NCBI GenBank assembly: GCA_963745035.1
Contig: CAVUVW010000021.1
Span: 128,001 to 192,000 of the forward strand
DNA from: an uncultured delta proteobacterium
Lineage (GTDB): Bacteria; Desulfobacterota; Binatia; UBA9968
DNA: 64,000 nucleotides
Direction of reading: 5' to 3'
This document shows positions 1,993 through 51,212 of this stretch, piece by piece (the first letter of the stretch is position 1; each line of letters begins with the position of its first letter). The notes under the pieces were generated by a model, which was given only the letters and a program-made list of their open reading frames with translations, was not told where the DNA came from and searched no databases. Position numbers and translations under genes: made by a program.

Positions 1993-2169
1993 CGCGGAAG
2001 CGGCGATTAAGAAGGACGATTGAATTGTTCGACTTCAAGATCGATAGCCCTGAAAGTGTCGCCTTGTCAGTTCTGTGAGGTTGTCGGGAAGTGAAACTCT
2101 GACTCGGATTTCTTCCCCAAAGGCGGGTCAACATGCGTTGCTGCGAGCATACGGCCGCGATACTCTGCA

Positions 2170-3039
2170 TTGGCAGAAGGAGATCAGAAGTGCCCTATGG
2201 CTTCACTGGTGATAGATTTCGATAAACTTGCTGATATCGGGGTAAAAGGTGTGCGCCGGGCGGCGGTTTTCATGGGCCTTGGATTAAACGCAGCACATGA
2301 TCCCGCCTTCAAAAAATACGAGCTGAGCAGCATTCAAAATATTGAACCGAGCACGATCCACATGGAATTGATTCCTGCTAATGTAAACGAGGAAACCTTG
2401 AGCCATTTCAAACGTGAATTCGGGACATGGATAATAACAAACGGATTGAGGGAGATAATCGAGCGATTTGCAGTTTACCTAGATGGTGTTAACCATGCAT
2501 GCCAGTGGATTGCTATAAATAAGCAAAACCTTCAATCGGACGACGCGGAAAGGCTGGATAAAAGTTTTCGCTTTAAGGGCATCGTCGATAAGCTACGTGA
2601 TCTTGAAGTGCGATTTGGCATCAAACCAAATCATCCAGAATATCTCGCGAGCATAAATCAAATGCGTAACTGTTTAACGCATCGGCTAGGCAGGGTAGGC
2701 GTGGAGGACTGTAATGGATATCAGCAGTTTGAACTAAAGTGGCTCGCGATGGAGTTTCAGATCCAATTGGAATCTGGAAAGATCATTACAGCAACCGACG
2801 TCCTTGGGAAGGTGTTACCTGAGGCGGGGACACTTCAACTAAAATTTGTGGAGCGCTGCAAGCCCTTTCCTTTAGGGAGTTTTGCACGCCTTGAGATGAA
2901 CGAATTGGCGGAAATCTGTAACTTTATTCTCAACTCAATACGCGCTGTAACCACTTCGGCGATTGAGTACGCAAAGGGCCAAGGAGTTCAATTAGTGACT
3001 CAGTCGCAAGATATCCCTAGCGCTGGCCGAAAATCCTAG
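2170..3039 (+). CDS. hypothetical protein with HEPN-like Rx4H motif
   Basis: 289 aa, visibly more AT-rich than flanks; SINQMRNCLTHRLG. Confidence 0.6.
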   Translation: MAEGDQKCPMASLVIDFDKLADIGVKGVRRAAVFMGLGLNAAHDPAFKKYELSSIQNIEPSTIHMELIPANVNEETLSHFKREFGTWIITNGLREIIERFAVYLDGVNHACQWIAINKQNLQSDDAERLDKSFRFKGIVDKLRDLEVRFGIKPNHPEYLASINQMRNCLTHRLGRVGVEDCNGYQQFELKWLAMEFQIQLESGKIITATDVLGKVLPEAGTLQLKFVERCKPFPLGSFARLEMNELAEICNFILNSIRAVTTSAIEYAKGQGVQLVTQSQDIPSAGRKS

Positions 3040-4374
3040 CAGGCTGCTGAAAAACTGTTGTTTTGTAAATTTCTTCTACTTTGGAAAACTGCACATATGT
3101 TAGGATGGCGCCGAATATAACTTCGGAGGCGTGGATGCGGGGATTGCAAGACGGACAAACGGGCATGTGGGCTTTTGTTTCCATCGAGGAACGAATTCCG
3201 AGCGACCATCCGTTGCGGCGGATTAAGCAGATGGCCGATCAAGAGCTTAAGAAGCTCTCGGGGGTGTTTAACCGGATGTATTCCCAAGTCGGACGACCGT
3301 CGGTGGCGCCCGAGAGGATACTGAAGTCGCTGTTGTTGATCGCACTGTACTCGGTGAGGAGCGAGCGGCAATTCAGCGAGCAGTTGGGTTACAATTTGTT
3401 GTTTCGCTGGTTTTTGGACATGGAGCTTGAGGAACAGAGTTTTGACGCCACGGTGTTCAGCAAGAACCGCGATCGGTTGCTGGAGCATGAGGTGGGCCGA
3501 TTGTTTTTCGACGCGGTGGTGAGACAAGCCCGAGCGGGCGGGCTGATGAGCGATGATCATTTCACCGTGGACGGGACTTTGATTGAGGCCTGGGCGAGCC
3601 TTAAGAGTTTTCGGCCCAAGGGAGAAGATCGGTCGGGAGATAACGATCAAGGCGATGGAGGCAACCGCTGGGTGGACTTTCATGGCGAGAAGCGAAGTAA
3701 CGAGACCCATGAGTCCAAGACTGATCCCGAGAGTCTGCTGATACGCAAGGGGCCGGGAAAAGAAGCGAAGCTTTGTTACGGGGCGCATGCCTTGATGGAG
3801 AACCGAAACGGCTTGTTGATCGATCTGATGGTCAGTCAGGCCACGGGCAGCGCTGAGCGGGAAGCCGCCAAGGACATGATCGAGCGTCAGCGGCGCAAAG
3901 GGGTGAAGGTAAAAAGTCTGGGAGCCGACAAGGGGTATGACACCGAGGACTTTGTCGGGTTTTTGCGCGGGCGAAAGATCCTCCCGCATGTGGCGGCCAA
4001 AAAGCGCGGTTCTGCCATCGATGGCAGAACGACTCGGCATCGGAGCTATAGCATCAGTCAACGGATACGAAAGAGAATCGAAGAGATCTTCGGTTGGGTG
4101 AAGACGGTGGGAGGGTTTAGGAAAACGCGTTTTCGGGGAACCGAAAAAACGCAATTGGCGGCGTGGTGGGTGGGAGCGGCGTATAACCTGGTGCGTATGG
4201 CGAAGTTGGCGGCCTAGGCGGTCTGCCAAAGGGGCAAAATAGATGCAGCGAGAGCTGAAAATCGCCTCTGTAGAGCAATCGACACTCATGTTTTCACTCT
4301 CTGCACTACTACACCGAAAAATTCTCTCTCTACGACGAAATCTATTCTTTTAAAGTGCCTTTTTCAGCAACCTG
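3040..4374 (+). mobile_element. IS5-family insertion sequence, complete
   Basis: TIRs CAGGCTGCTGAAAAA / TTTTTCAGCAACCTG (14/15); CTAG duplicated at 3036-3039 and 4375-4378. Confidence 0.93.
3081..4217 (+). CDS. IS5-family DDE transposase (true start may be 3105 or 3135)
   Basis: GRPSVAPE, SERQ, VDGTLIEAWAS, GADKGYD, RKRIEEIFGWVK. Confidence 0.93.
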   Translation: MENCTYVRMAPNITSEAWMRGLQDGQTGMWAFVSIEERIPSDHPLRRIKQMADQELKKLSGVFNRMYSQVGRPSVAPERILKSLLLIALYSVRSERQFSEQLGYNLLFRWFLDMELEEQSFDATVFSKNRDRLLEHEVGRLFFDAVVRQARAGGLMSDDHFTVDGTLIEAWASLKSFRPKGEDRSGDNDQGDGGNRWVDFHGEKRSNETHESKTDPESLLIRKGPGKEAKLCYGAHALMENRNGLLIDLMVSQATGSAEREAAKDMIERQRRKGVKVKSLGADKGYDTEDFVGFLRGRKILPHVAAKKRGSAIDGRTTRHRSYSISQRIRKRIEEIFGWVKTVGGFRKTRFRGTEKTQLAAWWVGAAYNLVRMAKLAA

Positions 4375-16661: not shown

Positions 16662-17852
16662 ATGAATCGCATTTTCATCAGTTACCGAAGCTCTGACGGT
16701 TTCAAGGATGCCAGCCGACTCGCCGTAGACTTGAATCGAGTGTTTGGCAGCGACCAGGTCTTTTTCGACAAACAAGATTTGCGCGGCGGGTCTTCCTGGC
16801 GGGATGAAATCATGGGCGCGCTAGGATCGAAACCGATCGTGCTGGCGCTGATCACGCCGGATTACTTCGGCGCCGTCGAGGGCGGGGGCCGCCGCATAGA
16901 TCGCGCCGATGACCCGGTCGGTGAAGAGTTGCTCGCCGGGTTCGATGCCAACGCGAAGATCATCCCGTTGCTCAGTGAGTCGGTCAAGATGCCGCCTGCC
17001 GGGTCATTGCCCGAGCGCTTACAGCCGATCACCTCCCGCCATGCGCTCAGACTCCGCAGCGAAGACTGGAATAACGATCTGTTACGTTTGATCGAAGATT
17101 TGGTCGCGAACAAGGTCAAGGTTCAAGATAAGGACTGGCGGTTGACCTTCGGCGGCGCGCCGCAAGTGCGTGCGGGGCGGTGGGTCGCAGTCGGCGTGAC
17201 GGCATTTCTTATCCTTGTGGTTATCCAACTCGCCCTCATGAGCGACAAAACTTCGGATGACGAAGCTTATTTCGGCGCCGCAGGAATCGGGTTGATGCCG
17301 CTTGCGGCGGCTTGGTACGCCCTGCGTACGCTCAAAGGCAGCGCCCGCAAGTTGAGATACACAGCGCTCGCCATGTTCCTTCTAAGCTGCTGGCAGGTCG
17401 TGAGCTTAGTCGCGGGCGGCGTGCAATTGCAATCCGGAATGTTCTCGACGACGACCAATGCTCCTGCCCAGATCGATCTCGCCGGCGTGTGGGATGTCGA
17501 AATGCTGGGGAAGGGCCCGTTGCCCCCGTTTAATCTCGTGCAAAACGGCGTGAACGTAAAGATGGAGACGGAGTCGGTTCAGGTCGACAAGCATCCCAAT
17601 ATCGCGGCGATGAACAAGATCGGGAAAGCGAAGGGCGGGCTGGTTTTGACTTCGACTCGGCTAAAAGGGGCGGGAACGCTCACTGGACGTGAATTGAATG
17701 TATTGGTGAATTACGTCACGGGACCCGAAGATATCGCTTTCGCCACCGGCACCTTGACGGCCAAGATCGACGACGGCGACCGCGTGATACAGGGAACTCT
17801 CTTGTTTATCGGCGATAAGGATGGCCAACCGCTGAAACTGACGCGTAGATAG
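16662..17852 (+). CDS. TIR-domain membrane protein
   Basis: RIFISYRSSD, VFFDKQDLRGG..W, DDPVGEEL, IIPLL; three TM helices; beta-rich C-terminus. Confidence 0.85.
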   Translation: MNRIFISYRSSDGFKDASRLAVDLNRVFGSDQVFFDKQDLRGGSSWRDEIMGALGSKPIVLALITPDYFGAVEGGGRRIDRADDPVGEELLAGFDANAKIIPLLSESVKMPPAGSLPERLQPITSRHALRLRSEDWNNDLLRLIEDLVANKVKVQDKDWRLTFGGAPQVRAGRWVAVGVTAFLILVVIQLALMSDKTSDDEAYFGAAGIGLMPLAAAWYALRTLKGSARKLRYTALAMFLLSCWQVVSLVAGGVQLQSGMFSTTTNAPAQIDLAGVWDVEMLGKGPLPPFNLVQNGVNVKMETESVQVDKHPNIAAMNKIGKAKGGLVLTSTRLKGAGTLTGRELNVLVNYVTGPEDIAFATGTLTAKIDDGDRVIQGTLLFIGDKDGQPLKLTRR

Positions 17853-26133: not shown

Positions 26134-27117
26134 CTACTTGCCGAGCGTCGCCAATGCTTTTTTATAGAAACGGTCGTCGATGTATTTTTCCGGCTTGGGA
26201 ACCGGCGGCTTCATCAGCCCGGCGATTTCGCGGAGCTCGAGGACGGTGCGGATCCCCTCGGTGTCGATGCGGCTGCGCGGCGTGAGCCCCAAGGTCGGGC
26301 TCAGCGCTTGGCGGTACATCGCTTCGGCGCGCGCCTTGTTGTTCTTGGTCTCGCCGAGCAGGAGCTGGATCGCCTCTTCCTTGTTTTTTCCATCCTGCAG
26401 CCAATCGGTGGCGCGAATCATCGCGCGGCTGAAGCGCACGACCAACTCCTCGTTGGCGTTGGCCCAGTCCCGACGCGTCGCGCCGAGACCGCGCGCGTAG
26501 TGCTTCACGTAGTCCTGGGCCTGGGCGAGGACTTTGAAGCCGCGCTTTTGGATCTCGTCGTCCGGCAGGCTCATCATCGCGCCCGCCGCTTCGCCGCGGC
26601 TCATGGCGTTGGCGCGCGCGGTGGTGTTGCCGAAGGCCTTGAAGGTATAGTCGCGGTTCCACTCCAGTCCGTGCTTTTTCATGATGTAAACGCCGACGAT
26701 CGCATAGCCGGTGGTCGGCGCGTCGACGGCAAAAATTTTGCCTTTGAGATCGGCGTAGTCGTTGATGCCCGATGCGACCACGAGCTTTTGATCGACACCC
26801 TGGCTGCCGCCGAGAAAGATGATGAAGTCGTTTTTCTGCGGATCTTCGCCTTGGCCTTCGGCCCAGGCGATCACGTTATCGGCGTTATTCAGGATCAGAT
26901 CGTAGCGGCCGCTGATGAGATTGCGCAGCAAGGTCGGCGAGTCGGTCACGGTGTTGATCTCGAGCCGCAGGTTTTCTTGTTCGAGGAAGCCTTTCGCTTC
27001 GGCGACGATGATCGCCGCATCGCGATTGAAAAGACCGATCCGGATCGTGTCTTGAGCCATGACTTGAACGGGCAGCAAAGCCAGCGCTAGCGCCCATACC
27101 CCCTTTGTTGTTTTCAT
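26134..27117 (-). CDS. NitT/TauT substrate-binding protein
   Basis: AEAKGFLEQENL, DLKGKIFAVDAPTTGYA; RBS GGAGG. Confidence 0.88.
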   Translation of the reverse strand: MKTTKGVWALALALLPVQVMAQDTIRIGLFNRDAAIIVAEAKGFLEQENLRLEINTVTDSPTLLRNLISGRYDLILNNADNVIAWAEGQGEDPQKNDFIIFLGGSQGVDQKLVVASGINDYADLKGKIFAVDAPTTGYAIVGVYIMKKHGLEWNRDYTFKAFGNTTARANAMSRGEAAGAMMSLPDDEIQKRGFKVLAQAQDYVKHYARGLGATRRDWANANEELVVRFSRAMIRATDWLQDGKNKEEAIQLLLGETKNNKARAEAMYRQALSPTLGLTPRSRIDTEGIRTVLELREIAGLMKPPVPKPEKYIDDRFYKKALATLGK

Positions 27118-27230
27118 CGCGCACCTCCGCGCTATCGTGTGGAACATGTCACAGGTGTGAAGGGGGGCGCAAGTGCGAGGAGAGAAAATCACCAGCGGCG
27201 CGCTCCGAGAGCAAATGCAAACCGAGGCGA

Positions 27231-27560
27231 TCAATTCGGTTGCGCCGACTCGTCGCTGCGGGCGGCGCGCTCGGGCGCTTTTTCCGGCGCTGGCGGCACC
27301 GGATCGACGGTCGCCAGCAGCGCCTTGCGCAGCGTGACCGCGGATTTTTGGAGCTCGCCCTTGATGTCTTCGGCGGTGCGGAACGCCGCGTCTAAAATCT
27401 CCTGATCGTGCTGCTCCTTGATATCTGTGAGAATGCGCGTGCGCGCCGCACCGGCGCGCTCCTGCTTGTTGGCGCGCAGGCAGGACACAATGATGGAAAC
27501 GAGAATCCCGCCGGTGACGCCGGCGGAAAAGATCAGCAGGTCGGAAATCCAATCGCCCAT
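27231..27560 (-). CDS. small single-TM protein with helical C-terminus
   Basis: MGDWISDLLIFSAGVTGGILVSIIVSCL then charged helix. Confidence 0.6.
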   Translation of the reverse strand: MGDWISDLLIFSAGVTGGILVSIIVSCLRANKQERAGAARTRILTDIKEQHDQEILDAAFRTAEDIKGELQKSAVTLRKALLATVDPVPPAPEKAPERAARSDESAQPN

Positions 27561-27633
27561 GTTCGATTCCGGTGCGCTGCGCTGCGGATCGAGATCGATT
27601 GTATTACCGCGCCGGGGGAGCGCTCTTCGATCA

Positions 27634-28665
27634 TCAAAGCGACAGCTTGTCCCAATCCGAAGTCGTGGCGTCGCGGGCGATGGAGAGGCTGCCGTCCGAG
27701 CCGGCAAACGCCGGATCGGAAACCACCGTTGCGCGCCCGCCGCCCAAATCGGCCAGCGCTTTGGTGATCGCCTCCGGCAATCCGGCTATGAGCGACGTGC
27801 CGCCGGCGAGGATCACATTGTTGCGCACCTTGTCCTGATACTCGGGGTCGACTTTCGCCAACAAGTTCGTCATGGTCTCGCACACCGGCGGCAAAATGCT
27901 TTCGCAGGCGGTGCGCATCTCCTCGGTGATGTCGATTTCCGTCGCCCTTCCCTTGACCGGCACCGTGACCCGCACGCGGTCTTTGGGCTCGCCGACGAAG
28001 CTCTGCTTTTCCTTCCATTCCCGCAGCATGTGTATGGAAAATTGTGCGTCGGGGTGGCGCTCCCGAACCAGTTTCATCAACTGCTCGTCGATCGAGTCGC
28101 CGGCGTTGGGCAGCGTCTTCTGGTCTTCCTCGGTCGGGTAGCGGCCCTGCATGACGCAAAAATCCGCGGTGCCGGCGCCGATGTCGATGACGAGAGCGTG
28201 CAACAGCGCTTCGACACCGTAGGCGACCGCAAAAGGCTCCGAGACCATCATCACGCTGTCGGCGATTCCGTCGATGGTGCTGCGTAAGTTTTGCCGGCTC
28301 ACGCGAAAAGCCTCCGCGGGCACGCCGACGACGGCGCGGACCTTGGCTTTGGCTTTTCCCTTCTGCTTGATGCCGGCGAGCGAGATCAAATGGCGGACGA
28401 GCTCCTGCACCGCCTCATGATCCTTCTCCGATCCTTCTTTCATGATTCCGCGTTCGAGCGGCCGGCGCAAATCCAACATCGGGCGGTTATCCAGCGCGTC
28501 GCGGCCGACGAGCACGGGCTTTTTGACCAGCTTGCGCGCAACCATATCGACCGGCCATCCGACATAGCTATCGATGATGTGGCGTTCGCCGTTGGAAGCC
28601 GAAATCGAGCTGCGCGAGGTGCCGAGGTCGATTCCCACGCAAAGTGTTTCGTTGGTTTCTTCCAT
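27634..28665 (-). CDS. MamK-like actin family ATPase
   Basis: GIDLGTS, VGVPA, VSEPFAVAYG, IDIGAGTADFC, PTEEDQKTL..AGD, PEYQ.KV..NVILAGG resemble MamK more than MreB. Confidence 0.88.
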   Translation of the reverse strand: MEETNETLCVGIDLGTSRSSISASNGERHIIDSYVGWPVDMVARKLVKKPVLVGRDALDNRPMLDLRRPLERGIMKEGSEKDHEAVQELVRHLISLAGIKQKGKAKAKVRAVVGVPAEAFRVSRQNLRSTIDGIADSVMMVSEPFAVAYGVEALLHALVIDIGAGTADFCVMQGRYPTEEDQKTLPNAGDSIDEQLMKLVRERHPDAQFSIHMLREWKEKQSFVGEPKDRVRVTVPVKGRATEIDITEEMRTACESILPPVCETMTNLLAKVDPEYQDKVRNNVILAGGTSLIAGLPEAITKALADLGGGRATVVSDPAFAGSDGSLSIARDATTSDWDKLSL

Positions 28666-28668
28666 GAA

Positions 28669-29667
28669 TCAACTGCCTTTCGTGCCGGCGGCTTGGAGGC
28701 CGTTCGCATAGCGGCGAATGCCTCTCTCCAGAGCCACCGCGATATTTTCCCGATAATTTTCCTTTGTCAACAACGCGGCCTCGCGCTCGTTGGAGAGGCA
28801 GGCGATCTCGACCAAGATCGCGGGCATCTGGGTGCCGATCAATACGGCAAACGGCGCGGTTTTCACGCCGCGGTTCTCCAGCTCGGGATTTTCCGCGCGC
28901 AGCGTGCGGAACAGTTGGCTTTGGATCGTATGGGCGAGGGCGCGAGATTCGTCGCGGCGCGCATCGACGTAGATCTTTTCCAGAATTTTTTTATAGTCGG
29001 AGAGCGCATAGCGCGAGTCCTTGTTTTCCCGCTTGGCCAATTGGAGGATGGCCGGATCGTCGGTGGGGCCGACGTAATAGGTCTCCAATGCGCGAATCGT
29101 ATGCGGCTCCATCCAGTTCACATGAATGGACACGAACAAGTCGGCCTTGTTCTCGTTGGCGAAGGCTACCCGCTGGTCGAGCCCCAGCGACCGGTCGGTG
29201 TCGCGGGTCAACAGCACTTGGAACGGCGCGTCTTTCAAAAGACGGCGCAAGCGCAGGGCGACGTCCAGGGTGATTTCTTTTTCGGTCATCCCGGCCTCGG
29301 CCGTAGCGCCTGGCTCGCCGCCGTGGCCGGCATCGATCACGATGGTTTGGACGGAAAGCGGCAGCGCCGACTGGTCGATGGGACGGGGCGGTGGAAGCGG
29401 CTCTGATCGCAGCGGCGGATCGATATTCGGCGCGGGATCCCGTTGAGCCGGCGCGGCGCTCAGCGCTGGCGTGCCGCTCTGCTGCGCTGCCGGCAGGGTC
29501 ATCATCACGGCGACGATCGCCGCGGCTGCCAAACCGCCCCATCGCCACACCCGGCGCTCGCCTGGCTGGCGTTTGCGCCGCGGGACTTTCACGTTGCGCA
29601 GCACAGCGACGTTGTCCTGCACGACGCCGCGGAGCAGCTCGGCCTTGGTTTCGTCGATATTGGCCAT
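28669..29667 (-). CDS. membrane-anchored N-acetylmuramoyl-L-alanine amidase (Amidase_3)
   Basis: IVIDAGHGG, EKEITLDVA, FVSIHVN, PAILVEIA; N-terminal cytoplasmic segment plus TM helix. Confidence 0.92.
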   Translation of the reverse strand: MANIDETKAELLRGVVQDNVAVLRNVKVPRRKRQPGERRVWRWGGLAAAAIVAVMMTLPAAQQSGTPALSAAPAQRDPAPNIDPPLRSEPLPPPRPIDQSALPLSVQTIVIDAGHGGEPGATAEAGMTEKEITLDVALRLRRLLKDAPFQVLLTRDTDRSLGLDQRVAFANENKADLFVSIHVNWMEPHTIRALETYYVGPTDDPAILQLAKRENKDSRYALSDYKKILEKIYVDARRDESRALAHTIQSQLFRTLRAENPELENRGVKTAPFAVLIGTQMPAILVEIACLSNEREAALLTKENYRENIAVALERGIRRYANGLQAAGTKGS

Positions 29668-29978
29668 GGGAACGCTTTTCGGAACCGCTACAAATAACCT
29701 GCAAAACTGCCCGATTCAGCCTTGCGACAAAGAATAGCACGAGGCAAAAAGTAACGCGATGTTTTTTCGCGCCCCGCGGCCGGAGGCTCGGAACCGCGTC
29801 GCGGCCGGCGGGCTATCGCCGGGCATAAGCAAGAAATCGCCGTGCCATTTTCGCCGCGTAAATGGGTGCAATTCCAAATTTTGTTGATAAGGTCGGAGAT
29901 CAGCGGCTCCCTCGCGCAAAAGCGCGGGTTTGGAGCCCCGCAGAATGCGGGGAAGATTGCTGTTGCGAGGCTGTGAAA

Positions 29979-31349
29979 CTACTTGGCAAACTTGGGCAGG
30001 AAATCTTCCAGGCGGATCTTCTTCATCACTTCTTCCGGGACTCTGAGCTCCGGTGCGAAGCCGGCGAGGGGCTTGGTCGCGTCCAGTCCCATTTTGGCGT
30101 TGACCCCGCCGGGGCCAGCGGAGGGATCGAGCTCGCTACCCTGCGCGTTGGCGATCACCACCAGGCCGCGATCGGCCTGGAAGCGGTTCGAGACCGCCCA
30201 AAGCACCTGCTCTTCATCGTACACGTCGATATCCTCGTCGACGACAACGACGTGCTTGAGCAGCATGTCGGAGGCGAAGGCGGCGCAGATGGCGTTCTTT
30301 GCCTGGCCCGGCGTGCGCTTCGCGATCGAAATATAGGCGTGGAAGCGGCAGTTGCCGGATACCGGCATGCAGACGCTTTTCACGGTCGGCACGCTGAGGC
30401 GCACCGCTTTGATCAACGCCGCCTCGCGCGGCACGGCGCCCATCAATTTATGCTCGGTGTAGCCGGCATGGACGTCCTGGAAGATATAGTTCTTGCGGTG
30501 GGTGATCGCGGTCACTTCGATGACTTGCCGTTCGTCTTTGGAAACCGCGTGGCCGGTGAATTCGCCGAACGGGCCTTCCTCGCGGCGCACGTTGGGAAGA
30601 ATCTTTCCCTCGATCACCATTTCGGCGTCGGCGGGAACCAGAATGGGCATTGTCTTGGCTTTCACCACGCGCAGCGCTTCGCCCATCATGCCGCCGATCA
30701 CCGCGTATTCGTCCTCCGTGGACGGCGTGAAGGCTTGCGCCCCGAGAGAAAAGAGCGGATGCACGCCGACGACGACGGCGATCGGCAACGGCTCGTTGCG
30801 CCGCTCCATCTTGTTGTGCAGGGTCCAGAGATGCCGTCCGACGGCCATGAAAATGCGCAACTCGCGCTTGCGCGCCATCATCAGCCGGTTGTAGCTCGTG
30901 TTTCTGACGCCGGTGTCCGGGTCGGCGGCGACTACGATGCCCGCGGTGATGTAGGGCGCGGCGTTGACATCGTAGTGGGTGAGGAGCGGCACTTTGCCGA
31001 GATCGACGTCGTCGGCGCTCTGGACGACTTCGTGCACCGGCGCATCGTTGACTTCGACCGGCGCGATCGGCTTGCCCTGACGATCGCTAAACGTCTTCGC
31101 GAGATTTTCGGGTTTGCACTCCAGCGCCAGCGCCATCAGCTTGCGGCTCGCCTGGGCGTTAATGACCACCGGTGCCTCGCTGCCTTCGACGTTTTCGCAA
31201 AACAGCAAGGGAAAACGTTTTGCCTTTTCCAATTGTGTGAGCAGCGCGGTGATTTCATAGCGCGGGCCGATCGGCTTTGTTACGCGCGCTACTTCGTCGG
31301 GATGTTTGGACTCCAGCTCGGCGATGAAACTGCGCAGGTCTTTGGGCAT
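29979..31349 (-). CDS. UbiD-family decarboxylase
   Basis: AEMVIEG, EGPFGEFTG, VVVVDEDID, LDPS. Confidence 0.93.
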   Translation of the reverse strand: MPKDLRSFIAELESKHPDEVARVTKPIGPRYEITALLTQLEKAKRFPLLFCENVEGSEAPVVINAQASRKLMALALECKPENLAKTFSDRQGKPIAPVEVNDAPVHEVVQSADDVDLGKVPLLTHYDVNAAPYITAGIVVAADPDTGVRNTSYNRLMMARKRELRIFMAVGRHLWTLHNKMERRNEPLPIAVVVGVHPLFSLGAQAFTPSTEDEYAVIGGMMGEALRVVKAKTMPILVPADAEMVIEGKILPNVRREEGPFGEFTGHAVSKDERQVIEVTAITHRKNYIFQDVHAGYTEHKLMGAVPREAALIKAVRLSVPTVKSVCMPVSGNCRFHAYISIAKRTPGQAKNAICAAFASDMLLKHVVVVDEDIDVYDEEQVLWAVSNRFQADRGLVVIANAQGSELDPSAGPGGVNAKMGLDATKPLAGFAPELRVPEEVMKKIRLEDFLPKFAK

Positions 31350-31464
31350 GACAATCGTGATCGGTTCTAGCTCAGAGAGTGGCGCCGACCATGGAATAAC
31401 ACCGAAGGCATATCAAGTGCCACGACCATACAGTCGGTCTTCGATTGTCCGTGGCCTAGAAAAT

Positions 31465-32532
31465 TTATAGCCCATAGAGCCGGCGCGGGTTGTCGTCGAG
31501 GATTTTTTTCTTGATCGGGTCGGCGACCAGGTCCGTGGCGCGGAAGATGTCGATGGCGTCGACTTCGCTCGACGCGTCGGTGTGGCCATAGTCGGTGCCG
31601 ATCACCAGATTGTCTTCGCCGGCGTAGCGCAGCACGTACTCAAAATCGTCGTTGGTTTCCGTCGTGACGTAGATGTTGAATTCCTTGAACGGCAGCTTGG
31701 GAAAGCCTTTGGCACCGCTGCGGCGGATCGCTTCCTTGACGACCCAGGGCACCCACTGCGCCGAGGCTTCGACGAATGCCCAGCGCAACTGCGGAAACGT
31801 TTTCGGCACGTCGCTCATCATCAGCGATAGGCACGTGATGACCGTCGGAACGCGGAACTGGGCGAAGCCGCCCATGCGGTCGTAGCGCGGCTTGAATTGA
31901 TCGAGGAGCTGCGGGCTGCCGTTGGCGATGTGCACGGCTACGGCCAGATCGAGCCGCGTCGCTTCCTCGTAAATCGCATAAAAATACGGATCCACCAGAT
32001 GCTTGTCGTCTTCGAAGGGGCGAAGGCTGACCGCCACGGCGCCGTTTTCCTTGGCATAGCGCATCTGCTGCACGGCCTCCGGGAGCGTCATCGCGGGGAC
32101 GACGCAGGACCAGCGCAGCCGGTTATTGCCCTGCTTCCAAACCTCCGCCATCCAGCGGTTCCACGACTTGCACAGCGCGATCTCGGCGTCGGCCTTATCG
32201 GCGACCCGTGCGATCCACATCGTGTTGAAAAGGATCTGCACGTCGATGCCGAGCTTGTCCATGTGCTTCAGGCGCAGCTCGACGTCGCGCAGCTCGCGCG
32301 CCTCGGGCGCGGTCTTGAGCTCGCGGCCGGTTTCCTTCGAGAGCGCGATCAGTTCCTGCTCGGTCAAGGTCGGCGGGCGAAAGCCGACCGATTTTCCCTC
32401 GACGAACCAGTATTGCATGTTGGGATTGTCGTTGGAGCTGAAAAGCTGCGGGCGGAACTTTTTCTCGGCTGCGTCCAGGAAGTCCCACGTGTGCTCGGAT
32501 TCGACCACGTGGGCATCAGCGTCGACGATCAT
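31465..32532 (-). CDS. amidohydrolase (Amidohydro_2) family protein
   Basis: DADAHV, AVHIA, FVEASAQW, GTDYGH. Confidence 0.9.
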   Translation of the reverse strand: MIVDADAHVVESEHTWDFLDAAEKKFRPQLFSSNDNPNMQYWFVEGKSVGFRPPTLTEQELIALSKETGRELKTAPEARELRDVELRLKHMDKLGIDVQILFNTMWIARVADKADAEIALCKSWNRWMAEVWKQGNNRLRWSCVVPAMTLPEAVQQMRYAKENGAVAVSLRPFEDDKHLVDPYFYAIYEEATRLDLAVAVHIANGSPQLLDQFKPRYDRMGGFAQFRVPTVITCLSLMMSDVPKTFPQLRWAFVEASAQWVPWVVKEAIRRSGAKGFPKLPFKEFNIYVTTETNDDFEYVLRYAGEDNLVIGTDYGHTDASSEVDAIDIFRATDLVADPIKKKILDDNPRRLYGL

Positions 32533-36048: not shown

Positions 36049-36168
36049 AATGGGATTCCTTTCGGGTGGCGAGATTACCCGAATCGCCGCCCATACGGCA
36101 ACCGTGACTTTTCCTGCGCACAAGGATTATGCTAGGCTTTGCGTCACCTGGACGAGTTAGGAGACGCT

Positions 36169-37635
36169 ATGTTCGACAGTTCACAAATCCAACCTCATAT
36201 CGCCTTCACCGATTTGCGCGAATGGATCGCCGAGGCGGAAAAGCTCGGCGAGGTCAAAACCGTTCTCGGCGCCTCGTGGCAGGAGGAGATCGGCTTGGCG
36301 AGCGACGTCGTGGTGCCGCCCGACGACGGACCGGCGGTGATCTTCGATGAAGTGCCGGGTTGTCCCAAAGGATTTCGCCTGCTGATCAATTGCTTCGCCG
36401 GCAAGCGGCGCGCGATGACGCTCGGTTTCCCGCAAGGCCTCACCAAGCAAGAGCTGAGCGATGCCTATTTCGCGCACTACCAGAAGGAACCCAAGCATAT
36501 TCCGCCGGTGATCGTCGATAGCGGGCCGGTTTTCGAGAACGTTCTCAACGGCGACGCCGTCGATATCATGAAATTTCCCACGCCGGTGTGGCACGTGAAC
36601 GACGGCGGGCGCTACATCGGCACCGGCTGCTATTCCGTGACCATGGATCCCGACGAAAAATGGATCAACGCCGGCTGCTACCGCGCCATGGTCCAGGATC
36701 AGAAAAGCGTGAGCCTGCTGATGGTGCCGGGCAAACACGGCTACATGCACCGGGAGAAGTACTTCAAGCGCGGCGAGAAAATGCCGCTGGCATTGGTCGT
36801 CGGCGGCGACCCGCTGTTTTTCTTCATGGCCGGCACCGAGCAGCCCTACGGCCTGTGCGAATACGACATCGTCGGCGGCATGCGCGGAAAACCGGTCGAG
36901 TGCGTGCGCGGCAAGATCACCGGCTTGCCTTTTCCCGCCAACGCCGAGATCGTCTTCGAAGGCTTCCTGAACAACGACAATCGAAAATTCGAAGGGCCAT
37001 TCGGCGAATGGACCGGCTACTACGCCTCGGACGAAAGCGCGCAGCCGGTACTGGAAATCGAAGCGGTCTATCATCGCAACGACCCGATCATTCTCGGCGT
37101 CCCGCCGATTGGCGGCGGCTCCGATGAAATGGCGCGTTATCGCGCGATCATGCGCTCCGCCATGCTCAAGCAGCAGCTTCAGAGCGCGGGTGTGCCGGAC
37201 GTGACCCAGGTGTGGTCGCACGAGATCGGCGCCTCGCGCATGCTGATCGCGCTCGCGATCAAGCAGCGCTATGCCGGCCACGCCAAACAGGTCGGCGTGC
37301 TCGCGGCGAGCTGCGGCGCGAGCGTCTATGGCTGCAAGATGGTGATCGTGGTCGACGACGACATCGACGCGTCGAATCTCGATCAGCTCATGTGGGCGAT
37401 GCTGTCGCGCTACGATCCGGCGACTTCAGTGGACATCCTGCGCCGCATGCGCAGTACGCCGGCCGACCCGCGCCTCACGCCCGAGCAGCGCAAGGTGCGC
37501 GACTTCACCAATTCGCGCATGGTCATCGACGCCACCCGGCCGTACGAATGGCGCGATAAGTTTCCCAAGGTCAACGCGCCGAGCCAGGAGGTCGCGCGCA
37601 AGGCGCGCGAGCAATTCGGCTACCTGCTGAAATAG
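36169..37635 (+). CDS. UbiD-family decarboxylase
   Basis: DGGRYIGTG, EGPFGEWTGYY, VIVVDDDID; RBS AGGAG. Confidence 0.93.
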   Translation: MFDSSQIQPHIAFTDLREWIAEAEKLGEVKTVLGASWQEEIGLASDVVVPPDDGPAVIFDEVPGCPKGFRLLINCFAGKRRAMTLGFPQGLTKQELSDAYFAHYQKEPKHIPPVIVDSGPVFENVLNGDAVDIMKFPTPVWHVNDGGRYIGTGCYSVTMDPDEKWINAGCYRAMVQDQKSVSLLMVPGKHGYMHREKYFKRGEKMPLALVVGGDPLFFFMAGTEQPYGLCEYDIVGGMRGKPVECVRGKITGLPFPANAEIVFEGFLNNDNRKFEGPFGEWTGYYASDESAQPVLEIEAVYHRNDPIILGVPPIGGGSDEMARYRAIMRSAMLKQQLQSAGVPDVTQVWSHEIGASRMLIALAIKQRYAGHAKQVGVLAASCGASVYGCKMVIVVDDDIDASNLDQLMWAMLSRYDPATSVDILRRMRSTPADPRLTPEQRKVRDFTNSRMVIDATRPYEWRDKFPKVNAPSQEVARKAREQFGYLLK

Positions 37636-37751
37636 CGGTTAAGTTTCGGTTTGAAGATCAAAGAGCTTGGATTCCCACGTGCGCGGGAATGATGGCTAAG
37701 AGTTGACTGCCAGTTTTTCGCAACCGGTTGGAAAGTGGATGCGTCGCTTTC

Positions 37752-38934
37752 TCAATCCAAGCGAAAGAAGTCCAGAGCGTTGCCGCAGACCATCTTGTGT
37801 TTTTCGTCGCCCGGCACTCCGGCGAAATTTTTCTCGATAATTTTCAGTGACTCGGGCCAGTCGGATTCCTGATGGGGGAAGTCGGACCCCCACATGAGGC
37901 GATCGACGTTGATCTTGTGGCGCAGCTCGACGCCGACGCGGTCGTATTGAAAGCCCCAGAGAAAATGCTCGCGAATATATTCGCTAGGCGGGCGCTTCAG
38001 CGGTTTGAGACCGAGCAGGCGCTCGGCCCAGCGGTGATGGCGGTCGTAGCGCACGTCGGCAGCCTGCAGAAAGAAGGGAATCCAGCCGATCTGATTTTCG
38101 GCGAAAAAGATCTTCAGATCGGGAAAGCGATCGAAGAGGGCGGATAGCACCCACTGCGCCGCGGCGACCGCGCCGTTCCCGCGCACCGGCCCGAAGCGGC
38201 TCACCTGATCGACGAGGTCATGGGTAAGCTTCTTCATGACGTCGTCGGGTTCTTGCGGATACTTGAAAAGCGGTCCCTTGCGCTCGCCGGTCCGGTCGAG
38301 GTCGACGTGGACGCTGATGGGCATTCCTATTTCCTGGCGCGCGCGACCAGAAATGATCGTCCTCATCCGATGGATGAGCTTTACTCGACGGAAAGCCTTG
38401 AAGTAGTACAGTTTTGAACCCTGCCGTGGCGCAATACTCAAGCTCTTCTAGAACATCATCGAGGGCGCATCCCAGCGGCAAGATGCCCACGCCGATCAAA
38501 CGCTCGGGAGCTGTGGCGCAGTATTCCTCTGCCAGCCAGCTGTTATAGGCGCGCACCACGGCCTTGTATGCCGCATTGTCGTCGATGCGCCGCCACAATT
38601 TCGGTCCGCCTTGCTGCGACGGAAAAAGCACCTCGGCGTCGATGCCGTCCTGGTCCTGTTCCGATACCCGCTGTTGCGCGCTGCCGGTGCCGGGAGTGCC
38701 TTCATATCTGCCGCTGAACGGGACGTATTGATCGCGGCCTTTGCCGCCGTAGAGATCGGCCGCGGCGGCGGGACGAACAATTTTGCCGGCGATCGCCCAA
38801 GCGTCGCCGCCGTCGGCTTGGCGCACGAGACGAGGCGCCAGCGCGCGATATTTTTCCGGCACGCGCTCGAGCCAGTGCTTGGAGTCAATTTCCAGGTGCG
38901 AGTCGGCGGAGATGTACCGATAAGGGCGTAGCAC
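37752..38934 (-). CDS. amidohydrolase family protein (frameshift ~38340)
   Basis: ISADSHLE, ISVHV, FAENQIGW, WGSDFPH. Confidence 0.85.
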
Positions 38935-48383: not shown

Positions 48384-49982
48384 CTAGCCGAATGCGGCCT
48401 TCTTGAAGGAAATCAGCTCGCCGTCGGGATAGGGGACGAAACCGCGTAGGTTGGGTTTTTTCACGATCACGTTCTTCCACCACCAGAGCGGCACGTAGGG
48501 CAGATCTTCGGCGAGGAGCCTTTGCACCTGCGCGTAAATTTCTCGGCGCTCTTGCCGATCGACTGTCGCACGCCCCTGGTCGAGCAGGCGGTCGACTTCG
48601 AGATTGCGATAGCGGCCGCGGTTGTCGCCGTTGGGCGGCGTGCTGGAGGAGTGAAAAATCTGATGGTAGATGTCCGGATCTTCGATGCCGACCCATGCGA
48701 GCGAATAGAGATGGAAGTTGCCGCTCTTCACGTCGCTAAAAAAAGTGCCCCATTCGTAGGTGCGCAGCTCGAGCTCGATGCCGACCTGTGATAGCTGCTC
48801 TTTGAGCGCTTCGGCGATGCGCCGGCGGAGGTCGATGTTGGTGGTCTTGAAGGAAAGACGAAAACGCGGGCGCGGTCCGTCGCCGTCGGGATCGATAAAG
48901 CCCGCCTCGTCGAGCAGTTGTTTGGCGCGCGCCCGATCGTAGGGCCAGCGCCGCGCGTTGCCCTCGTAGGCCCAGCTGTGCGGCGAAAGCAGGCCGCTGG
49001 CTTCCGTGGCGATGTTCTTGAGCAGATGGCGGATGATGCTGTCACGATCGATAGCGCAGGCGAGGGCCTGGCGGACTTTCCGGTGGCGCAAGATCGGATG
49101 CGTCAAATTGAATCCGATGTACTGAAACGTCGTGCCGTTTGCCGTCTCCACCCGGGCGCTGGTGTTTTTCTCGAGCCAGGGGAGCATCTCCGGCTCCAGA
49201 TCATTTTGCATGAAGTCGACGGCCCCCTGCTTGAACTCGAGCACCCGCACCAGCGCATCGGGAACAATTTTGAAAACCACACCTGGCAGCGGAGGGCGCC
49301 CCTCCCAGTACTCCGGGTTGGCTTGCAGCGTGACCTTCTCTCCCGATTCCAGCGCTTTTAAACGAAACGGTCCCGAGCCCGGCGGCGGGCGCGGGTTGGA
49401 ATTGCCAGCCTTCGGCGCGCCCGCGGGCACGATGCCGAGAGTGAATTGCTCGATGAAAGGCGCGTGCGGCGCACGCAAGCGAAAGCGCAGTTGGTGAGCG
49501 CCGGTCTGCTCGATGCTCTCGAGCGGCAACAGCGGGCCGCGTTTGGGCGAGAGAGCGGCGGGATCTAAAATCGATTCGTAGGTGTACTTCACATCGGCGG
49601 CGGTGAGGCGCGCGCCGTTGTGAAAAACCGCATCGGCGCGCAGATCGAAATGATAGGTGCGGTCGTCGAGCATGCGCCAATCTACCGCTAGCTCGCGCCG
49701 CAGTTGCGATCGTTCGTCGTAGCGCAGCAGCGAATTGTAGATCAGATTACCGATGCGCACGGAGTTGGCGTCGGTCGAGTAGCGCGGATCAAGCTGGAGC
49801 GGGTTGCTCTCGATGCCGGCGACCAGATAGCCGGGCGGGCGCCCGTCGGACGAGCGGCAACCGGAACAAGCGGCGAGCAATAGGGCGACGGAATACAATC
49901 GCAGAGATCGGTGGCGGCGCAACGACAAAAACTCTCGCGCGAAAATTTTCCTGAAAATAGCCGGTTTGCTGGACTCGGTCAA
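48384..49982 (-). CDS. ABC family-5 peptide-binding lipoprotein, DppA-like (start uncertain)
   Basis: LLLAAC lipobox, LDPR, FHNG..LTAADV, GSGPF, VRQALACAIDR. Confidence 0.9.
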   Translation of the reverse strand: MTESSKPAIFRKIFAREFLSLRRHRSLRLYSVALLLAACSGCRSSDGRPPGYLVAGIESNPLQLDPRYSTDANSVRIGNLIYNSLLRYDERSQLRRELAVDWRMLDDRTYHFDLRADAVFHNGARLTAADVKYTYESILDPAALSPKRGPLLPLESIEQTGAHQLRFRLRAPHAPFIEQFTLGIVPAGAPKAGNSNPRPPPGSGPFRLKALESGEKVTLQANPEYWEGRPPLPGVVFKIVPDALVRVLEFKQGAVDFMQNDLEPEMLPWLEKNTSARVETANGTTFQYIGFNLTHPILRHRKVRQALACAIDRDSIIRHLLKNIATEASGLLSPHSWAYEGNARRWPYDRARAKQLLDEAGFIDPDGDGPRPRFRLSFKTTNIDLRRRIAEALKEQLSQVGIELELRTYEWGTFFSDVKSGNFHLYSLAWVGIEDPDIYHQIFHSSSTPPNGDNRGRYRNLEVDRLLDQGRATVDRQERREIYAQVQRLLAEDLPYVPLWWWKNVIVKKPNLRGFVPYPDGELISFKKAAFG

Positions 49983-50006
49983 TTTTTTTCATTACCTTGG
50001 GAAGCA

Positions 50007-51212
50007 ATGCTCCGCTTGGCTCGATCGCTGCCGCCGGCACTCGCGCTCGCATTGTCCCTTCTGGTTACGCCGGCGCTCTGCGCGCAATCGCGTCCGTTTC
50101 CCATGCCGGCCGGCTTGGAGGGCGCGGTGGAATTCTGGAAGCGGATCTTTACGCGCTACAGTTTCGCTGAAGTCGTGCTCTTCGATCCGATGGACCCCGC
50201 CACGATCTACAGCGTGGTGCGCGCGCCCGACACCGAAGAGGGACGGGCGCTGGTGGAAAGGGAGCGCGCACGCGTCGCCGCCGAGTACGATCTGGCCGAC
50301 GCGGAGAACCGGCTCCGCAGCCAGCGCGGCGCCAAGGAGCACTTTGCCGAAGGGCTCAGAATTTCCGGGCGTTATATCTCCGAGATGAAAAAAATCTTCC
50401 GCGCCGAAGGCGTGCCCGAGGAGCTGACGTATTTGCCGCTGGTCGAGTCGTCTTTCAACATCCGGGCGCGCTCGTCGGCGGGCGCGGTGGGCATGTGGCA
50501 ATTCATGCCTGACACCGGAAAGAAGTTCCTGCGCATCGACGCGACGGTCGACGAGCGGCGCGATCCCTTCACCTCGACGCGGGCCGCGGCGCGGCTGCTG
50601 AAACAAAACTATCGCCTGTTCGAGAGCTGGCCGTTGGCGATCACCGCGTACAATCACGGCACGGAAGGGATTTTCCGGGGCATGAAGGCGGTGGAGTCCG
50701 ACGATCTGGTGGAATTGATCAAACGCTACCAGTCGCCGACCTTCGGCTTCGCTTCGAAAAACTTTTACGCGGAGTTTCTCGCGGTGGTGGATATCGCCTC
50801 GCGGCAGGAAGTTTACTTTCCGTTTTTGCGTGCCCATCGGCCCGTGGCGCTGCGCGAAGTCGAAGTCAAACGGCAGACGCCGCTGCTCGCGGTGCTGAAG
50901 CCGGCGGCGATTGCGCACGACGATTTTTTCGAATGGAACCCGGCCCTCGAGCGCGACTTAAAGGCGCTGCCGGTGGGCTACCGGATCAAGCTGCCACCGC
51001 AAAAAGTCGACGCCTTCTCGCTGGCCGAGCGCCGCGCCTGGGACGTCGTTTCGAAGAAACCCAGGACTGTAAAAGCGAGCGGCGGCGGACCCAAAAGCGC
51101 TGGCGCCGCCGCTCCAACGCCGGCGCGGTCATCGAGAAAGAGCGTTGCCGCTTCCGCCGCCAAGGCTTCCGCTCCCGCCGTCCGTCGTACGCCCACCAAG
51201 GCCGGTCTGTGA
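50007..51212 (+). CDS. lytic transglycosylase (MltD-like SLT domain)
   Basis: LPLVESSF, AGAVGMWQFM, AITAYNHG. Confidence 0.9.
   Translation: MLRLARSLPPALALALSLLVTPALCAQSRPFPMPAGLEGAVEFWKRIFTRYSFAEVVLFDPMDPATIYSVVRAPDTEEGRALVERERARVAAEYDLADAENRLRSQRGAKEHFAEGLRISGRYISEMKKIFRAEGVPEELTYLPLVESSFNIRARSSAGAVGMWQFMPDTGKKFLRIDATVDERRDPFTSTRAAARLLKQNYRLFESWPLAITAYNHGTEGIFRGMKAVESDDLVELIKRYQSPTFGFASKNFYAEFLAVVDIASRQEVYFPFLRAHRPVALREVEVKRQTPLLAVLKPAAIAHDDFFEWNPALERDLKALPVGYRIKLPPQKVDAFSLAERRAWDVVSKKPRTVKASGGGPKSAGAAAPTPARSSRKSVAASAAKASAPAVRRTPTKAGL

Follow-up and report, generated by a model that had tools for sequence, protein, structure and literature searches.

We analyzed a 64,000-nucleotide stretch of DNA (the window) from an uncultured delta proteobacterium of the Binatia lineage UBA9968 (assembly GCA_963745035.1, contig CAVUVW010000021.1, positions 128001 to 192000). 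On its minus strand lie a gene for a peptidoglycan amidase, a gene for an actin-like protein related to the magnetosome filament protein MamK, and a gene for a small membrane protein. An earlier reading of the letters of this DNA (the original prediction) had taken the three genes for a wall-remodeling module in which the actin filament positions the amidase. The host genome (7.43 Mb, 28 contigs, 92.6% complete) holds one MamK-like gene. In window coordinates, the locus is laid out as follows.

29668-29978, minus strand: intergenic region from the UbiD-family gene to the amidase gene, presumed promoter region; 311 nucleotides without a long open reading frame on the minus strand.

28669-29667, minus strand: Amidase_3 gene, 332 amino acids, first of the module; open reading frame ending in TGA, Pfam Amidase_3.

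29593-29658, minus strand: amidase codons 4-25, conserved and putatively cytoplasmic N-terminal helix, predicted actin-binding motif (alignment, structural model and co-folding).

29500-29556, minus strand: amidase codons 38-56, predicted transmembrane helix after an arginine/lysine-rich stretch; a helix in the AlphaFold2 model, hydrophobic in 37 of 37 sequences.

29353-29499, minus strand: amidase codons 57-105, variable proline/alanine-rich linker, putatively periplasmic; predicted local distance difference test score (pLDDT) 43-67, no secondary structure.

28672-29352, minus strand: amidase codons 106-332, catalytic domain of AmiA/B/C type, including an insert at about 198-257 (fold and sequence matches).

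27634-28665, minus strand: MamK-like actin gene, 343 amino acids, second of the module; ATG start, NCBIfam MamK, Pfam MreB_Mbl/Actin.

27231-27560, minus strand: gene for a small protein with a single transmembrane helix, 109 amino acids, lineage-restricted accessory; start backed by homologue lengths.

The TGA of the amidase is followed by three nucleotides (ttc) and then by the ATG of the actin, just as the original prediction had it, and the two genes are probably translationally coupled. Around the pair, Pfam recognizes NMT1-type binding proteins, UbiD, amidohydrolases, MFS transporters and haem genes. Pfam scans of 6 + 56 open reading frames of the window returned no mam, mreC/D or partition genes, in agreement with what had been read from the letters alone.

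An alignment of 20 diverse MamK-like proteins was scanned over species genomes and matched at least 573 related stretches, the best 80 of which we examined. The actins of these 80 are 60-86% identical to the window actin and come from metagenome-assembled genomes titled Candidatus Binatia, Deltaproteobacteria, Rokubacteria/Methylomirabilota and, for the most part, Acidobacteriota (Thermoanaerobaculia, Holophagae and one Vicinamibacterales); every carrier identified by title is a metagenome-assembled genome. The amidase gene lies directly upstream of the actin gene in 78 of the 80, and in the other two the actin starts at a contig end. Because a gene caller based on G+C content at third codon positions fused the two genes, both being spanned by some open frames, spacing was taken from tblastn coordinates, and it is mostly -8 to +8 nucleotides from amidase stop to actin start. 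The same caller missed the small transmembrane gene under an over-extended neighboring open reading frame. No other neighbor is common to several phyla in the 80 loci. Downstream genes were considered as module members in other phyla and rejected as unrelated (alpha/beta hydrolase, chorismate mutase-prephenate dehydrogenase, DNA ligase, metallo-beta-lactamase fold, TPR). So regular an adjacency is far more than chance would give, and the amidase-actin pair, not the set of three genes, is the unit that is conserved, across three phyla or more.

Of 24 other genomes of the genus, 20 have the actin, as do 0 of 16 genomes from the order's two other families. Amidase adjoins actin in all 19 of the 19 loci fetched from the genus, one of which is cut by the locus end and another diverged and frame-shifted; one of the 19 (L020) belongs to a genome flagged as unpublished, and no result depends on it. 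Among the four genus genomes that lack an actin match, there is one in which the contig breaks off after the amidase and the first 32 codons of the actin, and another is just 60% complete. Two near-complete genus genomes (99% and 92%) carry only an AmiC-like amidase (37-40% identity, with no match to the N-terminal segment), so that both module genes are absent together. Signs of decay were seen at two loci. At L106 (genome G007) the amidase is intact and the actin match ends at residue 132, a decayed module; at L022 (genome G018) the actin has three TGA stops and frame changes and the amidase is broken over several frames, which may be decay or assembly indel errors.

Farther out, an even sample of 300 genomes of the window's phylum yielded 10 further genomes with weaker actin matches (42-54% identity). 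Five of these 10 loci were fetched: two, at 51-54% identity and one of them in a genome of 33% GC, are overlapped by an Amidase_3 gene that lies upstream and has the same N-terminal motif, and three, at 42-43% identity, have no such upstream amidase. The conservation of the pair that the original prediction had called for checking is found, then, in 78 of the 80 closer loci and in two of two more distant ones. In a sample of 301 genomes from the phylum of an acidobacterial carrier, 25 have the actin with an E value no higher than 1e-100. Soil metagenomes contain it in abundance, and DNA runs holding the window stretch are labeled as soil, rhizosphere and winery metagenomes.

The pair might be the cassette of a mobile element or prophage, combining a segregation actin with an endolysin. 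The Amidase_3 fold is common among endolysins, the weaker fold matches of the amidase include phage enzymes, actin-like proteins occur on plasmids and prophages, and phyla are intermingled in the actin tree, Rokubacteria with Holophagales for instance. We nevertheless regard such an origin as very improbable: the genes on either side are metabolic and housekeeping ones, vary with the lineage and include no integrase, capsid or partition genes, the locus is syntenic within the genus, composition is flat across it, and the amidase is of AmiA/B/C type with a regulatory insert, not of the short phage type.

The original prediction was right to place a gene for a small single-transmembrane protein behind the actin, but the start it used (open reading frame 27231-27707) does not hold: that frame is over-extended into the actin gene. 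The likeliest start is ATG 27560, 73 nucleotides past the actin stop, because the resulting 109 amino acids match the lengths of 48 homologues (101-146 amino acids, mostly 105-119). The protein has a hydrophobic transmembrane helix at its N-terminus and a charged helical C-terminal part, and it matches no Pfam or NCBIfam family. Those of its 48 homologues that have a name are all called "hypothetical", and those with a title come from Binatia. The gene follows the actin in 15 of 19 same-genus loci as against 3 of the 80 wider loci. It is a third, accessory member in the Binatia-type lineage; of the three genes grouped at the outset, amidase and actin stand as a unit, whereas the small gene, found only in Binatia-type loci, does not belong to the core.

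To place the actin among its relatives, we scored it on protein family models. It reaches 377.2 bits on the NCBIfam MamK model (NF040964, cut-off 400) over model positions 1-331 of 335, with the match beginning at residue 8. It scores 213.8 bits on the BeeR model (NF053558, cut-off 530) and 70.5 and 58.7 bits on two MreB models (NF010539, cut-off 293, and TIGR00904, cut-off 365.75). Two further members of its clade score 367 and 378 bits on the MamK model. Because the actins of the two distant amidase-linked loci (L111 and L112) pass the MamK cut-off, at 424 and 441 bits, that cut-off does not separate functions. The best solved relatives of the actin are MamK (5LJW, E 6.3e-74), then 8R2N (E 2.4e-42), then MreB (E 5e-08).

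Residues D13, G15, E143, D161, G163, G288 and G289 are invariant in 37 actins, and we take them to be nucleotide-binding and catalytic residues, with E143 and D161 presumably acting in ATP hydrolysis. These two align with E143 and D161 of MamK (5LJW). Because the nucleotide-binding and catalytic residues of MamK are kept, the actin would most likely polymerize with ATP, under the inner membrane.

We then considered phylogeny, which the original prediction had named as a way of telling this actin from MamK and MreB. The tree has 78 rows: 66 full-length or C-terminal-domain representatives, the window actin, 10 further amidase-linked actins and, as outgroup, the genome's MreB, for which we took a weaker match to the MamK model on contig C14 (67.7 bits). 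Fragments shorter than 320 amino acids were excluded and fusions were trimmed to their last 345 residues. A 13-row clade containing the 11 amidase-linked actins and two representatives has full support (100 in the Shimodaira-Hasegawa-like approximate likelihood-ratio test, SH-aLRT). It stands apart from MreB, from a BeeR-like clade (SH-aLRT 100) and from the clade with the best-scoring MamK representatives (508 and 472 bits); the tree gives no resolution of the deep branching order. The amidase-linked actins are a lineage distinct from MamK representatives, BeeR-like proteins and MreB.

Two other groups of MamK-like actins came to light. One is a clade (SH-aLRT 99) of long proteins of 523-1232 amino acids with a MamK-like actin domain at the C-terminus (P0136, P0137, P0140, P0145, P0147-P0150, P0152, P0156, P0157, P0170 and P0176); the two that were scanned score 409 and 414 bits on the MamK model. 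The other occurs at L113:6748-10088 and L115:40-2892, in genomes of 2.3-2.7 Mb from the window's phylum. There the actin is over the MamK cut-off (435 bits in L113) and is preceded by genes of 117 and 495-663 amino acids without Pfam families, the larger of which has a weak SMC-like match only; here a MamK-like actin has other partners, with no amidase among them.

The kinship with MamK raises the question of magnetosomes. For the actin to be a true MamK, a magnetosome cluster would have to lie elsewhere in the genome or in the missing part of the assembly. Its best NCBIfam and PDB matches are indeed to MamK, the distant amidase-linked actins pass the MamK cut-off, and in a genome that is 92.6% complete a cluster could be unassembled. 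The original prediction had proposed searching the genome for mamABEMQ. Our genome-wide search covered three families, MamI, MamP and MamQ, and none was found over its cut-off: MamI had no match (cut-off 80 bits), MamP only partial matches of about 80 residues at 37 bits or less (cut-off 300), and MamQ only weak matches at 83 bits or less (cut-off 250), which we take to reflect a relationship with LemA. Nor do mam genes adjoin the pair in any of the 80 related loci, the amidase is the partner in 78 of 78 assessable ones, and the amidase-linked clade is separate from the best-scoring MamK representatives. We give the magnetosome explanation almost no weight. A locus in another genome of the window's phylum (L114:3227-9990) has an actin that scores 481 bits on the MamK model and lies behind a FeoB gene among open reading frames without families; it may be a genuine magnetosome cluster.

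The partner of the actin matches Pfam Amidase_3 (PF01520) with 166.3 bits (threshold 27, E 8.7e-49) at residues 109-318, over model positions 1-173 of 174. We aligned 37 orthologues from three phyla. All share one order of parts: an N-terminal motif with the approximate consensus RLKRxLLRxAVxENVxxIxG, in which R13 and N19 are invariant and K8 is kept in at least 90%, then a basic stretch, a hydrophobic helix, a proline/alanine-rich stretch of variable length and sequence, and the catalytic domain. H115, E129, H182 and E287 are invariant in 37 of 37 sequences and, by comparison with the family, are presumably the zinc ligands and the catalytic glutamate. A strict regular expression for the N-terminal motif finds 45 sequences including the window's own; most of the full-length sequences listed as misses show a deviating motif by eye, several are cut by a contig end, and the frame of L102 is mostly actin. 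Because the strict pattern misses deviating motifs, motif counts are given from the 37-sequence alignment only.

The AlphaFold2 model of the amidase (mean pLDDT 81) has a helix at 2-23, a second at 38-56, a linker of low confidence that extends to about residue 105 and, from about 106, a catalytic domain modeled with confidence. The second helix has 19 residues, is hydrophobic and is preceded by an arginine/lysine-rich stretch, for which the positive-inside rule gives an N-in orientation. Neither a twin arginine directly ahead of the hydrophobic stretch nor an A-x-A site is conserved in the 37 sequences; because the twin arginine is not, we read helix 38-56 as a signal anchor and not as a cleaved signal. 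Model and alignment fit a protein with a cytoplasmic N-terminus and one transmembrane helix, and so bear out, as predicted topology, the cytoplasmic segment ahead of the membrane helix that had been proposed from the sequence.

Enzymes of the AmiA, AmiB and AmiC type have an insert that blocks the active site until a LytM-type activator binds. The best fold matches of the catalytic domain are Escherichia coli AmiA (8C2O; template modeling score 0.85 on the target), Bartonella AmiB (3NE8) and AmiC (4BIN), and the sequence alignment to AmiB 3NE8 covers an insert of about 50 residues (about 198-257) in which E214 and N215 are invariant. On the NCBIfam models for AmiA, AmiB and AmiC the protein scores 81-90 bits, far under the cut-offs of 400-700, and Pfam finds no AMIN domain in it. 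The genome has a second Amidase_3 gene, on contig C6, with a signal peptide and AMIN, and three other carrier genomes hold 2-3 Amidase_3 genes each. Because a separate AMIN-domain Amidase_3 exists and carriers have 2-3 copies, the actin-linked amidase appears to be an extra, specialized enzyme, which would work alongside the canonical AMIN-domain amidase and not replace it.

We co-folded amidase residues 1-44 with the actin, as the original prediction had suggested, using 37-row alignments for both partners, in three runs and with three controls. The interface score (interaction prediction score from aligned errors, ipSAE) was 0.86, 0.86 and 0.87, and the best of the three controls reached 0.00. 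In calibration, 116 of 157 solved complexes attain that level, as do 2 of 215 mismatched pairs. The runs have at least 84% of contacts in common, with a partner pLDDT of at least 62. Amidase residues 4, 7-8, 10-20, 22-23 and 25 are predicted to lie on actin residues 121-128, 139-155, 174-176 and 329-341, which by comparison with actin we take to be the hydrophobic cleft between subdomains IA and IIA. On ParM this cleft receives ParR, and many helices that bind actin dock there as well. Independently of the model, the interface positions R121, R128, L155, R175, A333 and D337 are invariant or nearly so in 37 clade actins and different in 64 others (13 from the MamK clade, five BeeR-like and 46 other representatives). 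The two distant amidase-linked actins also have basic residues at 121 and 128, and three unlinked ones do not. These models predict that the N-terminal helix of the amidase docks into the IA/IIA cleft of the actin.

Several observations weigh against this contact and against the module built on it. The calibration counts hold only roughly, because our own alignments were used here. Solved complexes show helices in the corresponding cleft of actin and of ParM, and likeness to them may account for part of the score. In actin-family filaments the cleft lies near the longitudinal contact; binding of the helix might therefore be limited to monomers or to one end of the filament, and the mechanism would then be another. 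The four interface positions other than 121 and 128 are not shared by the distant amidase-linked actins, and the comparison is a small one (2 against 3 sequences). At the level of transcription, a sigma-70 consensus scan of 26900-30100 gave 0 sites, leaving the promoter without a location. RNA contigs, described next, are no proof that the genes share one transcript, and RNA libraries may contain DNA.

Six soil and rhizosphere RNA-library runs hold 9-17% of the sampled words of the stretch, and RNA contigs from four runs cover parts of all three genes. One contig of 151 nucleotides crosses the amidase-actin junction (28556-28706, 3 differences), and two cross the actin stop and the start of the small gene. 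These contigs over both gene junctions lend weak support to expression. Single runs leave parts of the stretch uncovered, to which we attach no meaning. The same 26900-30100 interval has four terminator-like sites, not above shuffled sequence (mean 4.4); because the promoter scan was null and terminators are at shuffle level, the ends of the operon are not set by signals.

Could the two genes simply be co-expressed neighbors whose products do not touch? The helix would then serve another partner, such as an export chaperone, or form part of a cleaved signal for the twin-arginine translocation (Tat) or Sec pathway. The window amidase does have RR right ahead of its hydrophobic stretch, E. coli AmiA and AmiC are Tat substrates, which counts for a cleaved signal, and actin binding is a prediction only. 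Yet twin arginine and A-x-A are not conserved in the 37 sequences, the hydrophobic helix has 19 residues, the co-fold scores 0.86 as against 0.00 for controls with an interface on clade-specific invariant actin residues, and both genes are lost together in two near-complete genomes. Taken together, we judge mere neighborhood decidedly improbable.

A contact might also serve to control the activity of the amidase and not its place. Nucleotide-driven assembly of the actin on the cytoplasmic tail would send a signal through the transmembrane helix that frees the auto-inhibitory insert, as FtsEX-EnvC does on AmiA and AmiB. The insert that aligns to the regulatory region of AmiB (3NE8), the AmiA-like fold (8C2O), the invariant E214 and N215 and the predicted binding of the tail to the actin are all compatible with such control. 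But the linker that joins the transmembrane helix to the catalytic domain is some 50 residues long, weakly conserved and modeled with low confidence, and would pass on a conformational signal badly; moreover, the module has no gene for a LytM-type activator. Control of activity is, on this evidence, a distinctly unlikely primary role.

The reading that we favor, with moderate confidence, is a filament-tethered peptidoglycan amidase, a two-gene module analogous to bactofilin-LmdC. Those checks of the original prediction that could be made all favored it. The ATP-dependent filament would form under the inner membrane, and the amidase would be a type-II membrane protein whose first 25 or so residues form a conserved amphipathic cytoplasmic helix, followed by basic residues, one transmembrane helix, a flexible periplasmic linker and an AmiA/B/C-type domain with intact active site and regulatory insert. 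With that helix docked in the predicted IA/IIA cleft, the filament could gather, place or move the amidase and so set, from the cytoplasm, where stem peptides leave the glycan strands. Because the regulatory insert is present, the enzyme would probably still need release from auto-inhibition.

Filament tethering could also run the other way, with the amidase-fold protein acting mainly as an anchor in membrane and cell wall, and the filament placing other cargo, either cytoplasmic or, in Binatia, a partner of the small transmembrane protein. The alignment shows no segment by which the actin itself could bind the membrane, so that the bitopic amidase would be its sole tether; the actin is far more conserved (60-88%) than the amidase (38-69%); and one lineage has a third membrane protein. 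This reversal is nonetheless unlikely in our view. From phylum to phylum, the four residues presumed to bind the metal and to catalyze are, like the insert, either invariant or strongly conserved, which favors a working, regulated amidase over an anchor, and no other conserved neighbor gene offers itself as possible cargo.

A bolder version of the tethered amidase, which we put forward as doubtful, makes the ATP-driven MamK-like filament a motor or track. With the amidase tail in the barbed-end cleft, treadmilling or growth would deposit the enzyme along the membrane, and the resulting pattern of peptide-free glycan would set shape, separation or growth zones. The amidase-linked form could also be the ancestral and widespread job of the MamK lineage, and magnetosome positioning a derived one.

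We compared the module with known systems. The closest in working principle appears to be BacA-LmdC (eLife 2024; PMC10945521). There the gene of a polymer likewise overlaps or adjoins that of a bitopic peptidoglycan hydrolase, the N-terminal cytoplasmic tail of LmdC binds the polymer (KD ~15 uM), and the pairing extends across phyla, in 226 species. It differs in that BacA is a nucleotide-independent bactofilin and LmdC an M23 endopeptidase with a beta-hairpin tail, as opposed to an actin-family ATPase, an Amidase_3 enzyme and a helix here; tail binding was measured there and is predicted here.

By sequence, the closest characterized family is MamK (5LJW, 5JYG, 5LJV), which shares the length and actin fold of the window protein. 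The latter, however, is under the MamK cut-off, has an amidase neighbor instead of mamAB genes, and belongs to a separate clade with its own invariant cleft residues. BeeR (PNAS 2025; PMC11929497) and Bbp (Microbiol Spectr 2023; PMC10580974) are likewise MamK-related actin clades of non-magnetotactic bacteria and examples of MamK-like actins with other jobs. BeeR is described with a disordered N-terminal extension of 30-50 residues, and the Bbp gene sits with a Kelch-domain gene in large bacteria. The window actin has no such extension and is far under the BeeR cut-off. The word "amidase" is absent from the main texts of both articles.

On the enzyme side, the catalytic domain, insert included, matches AmiA, AmiB and AmiC (8C2O, 3NE8, 4BIN, 8C0J) best in both fold and sequence, but the actin-linked enzyme lacks AMIN and a cleavable signal and would have a cytoplasmic helix, a transmembrane anchor and a long linker instead. 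Among actins, MreB is distant, the window protein scoring about 70 bits at best on its models. RodZ is bitopic and binds MreB through a cytoplasmic N-terminus on another face, and it is not an enzyme; ParR inserts a short helix into the ParM IA/IIA cleft and links DNA; LytE, an NlpC/P60 endopeptidase, is secreted and has no membrane anchor. MreBH-LytE of Bacillus subtilis resembles the present pair in that an actin homologue reportedly governs a wall hydrolase.

Beyond the module, the window has features of its own. Two sets of a UbiD-family decarboxylase and Amidohydro_2 (29979-32532 and 36139-38441) stand amid at least six NMT1-type or TctC-type binding-protein genes and resemble a paralogue-rich region of aromatic-acid catabolism. 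An IS-type transposase (DUF772 and DDE_Tnp_1) lies at 3081-4214, and G+C is 0.51 in 2001-4000 as against about 0.60 elsewhere. A 396-aa protein at 16662-17849 has an N-terminal TIR_2 domain (5e-11) with an 85-aa open reading frame before it and may be a defense-type gene. At 49911-51209, about 20 kb from the module and beside hemA, hemC and hemB, there is an SLT-domain lytic transglycosylase, whose position near the pair is not conserved in other loci. Two open reading frames at 59646-62063 (180 and 526 amino acids, about 300 nucleotides apart) match Penicil_amidase, as a broken gene or as separately encoded parts.

Full-text literature searches, whose coverage left most subscription journals outside, turned up no description of an amidase-actin module, which agrees with the original prediction that it was undescribed. 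Among the matches listed, none linked MamK to Acidobacteria, Rokubacteria, Binat* or Thermoanaerobaculia, and none brought Amidase_3 together with bacterial-actin terms. The finding is real and well conserved, and apparently undescribed.

Because the NCBIfam MamK model names some amidase-linked actins, genome surveys should not take a MamK annotation alone for a sign of magnetosomes. In bacteria that are not magnetotactic, MamK-like actins such as BeeR and Bbp have had no assigned function or partner; here a large clade has a defined partner and a testable interface. If the favored reading is true, this would be the first actin-family filament bound directly to a peptidoglycan amidase and a second, independent case, after bactofilin-LmdC, of a polymer binding the tail of a bitopic wall hydrolase, and it would bear on how amidases are restrained in space.

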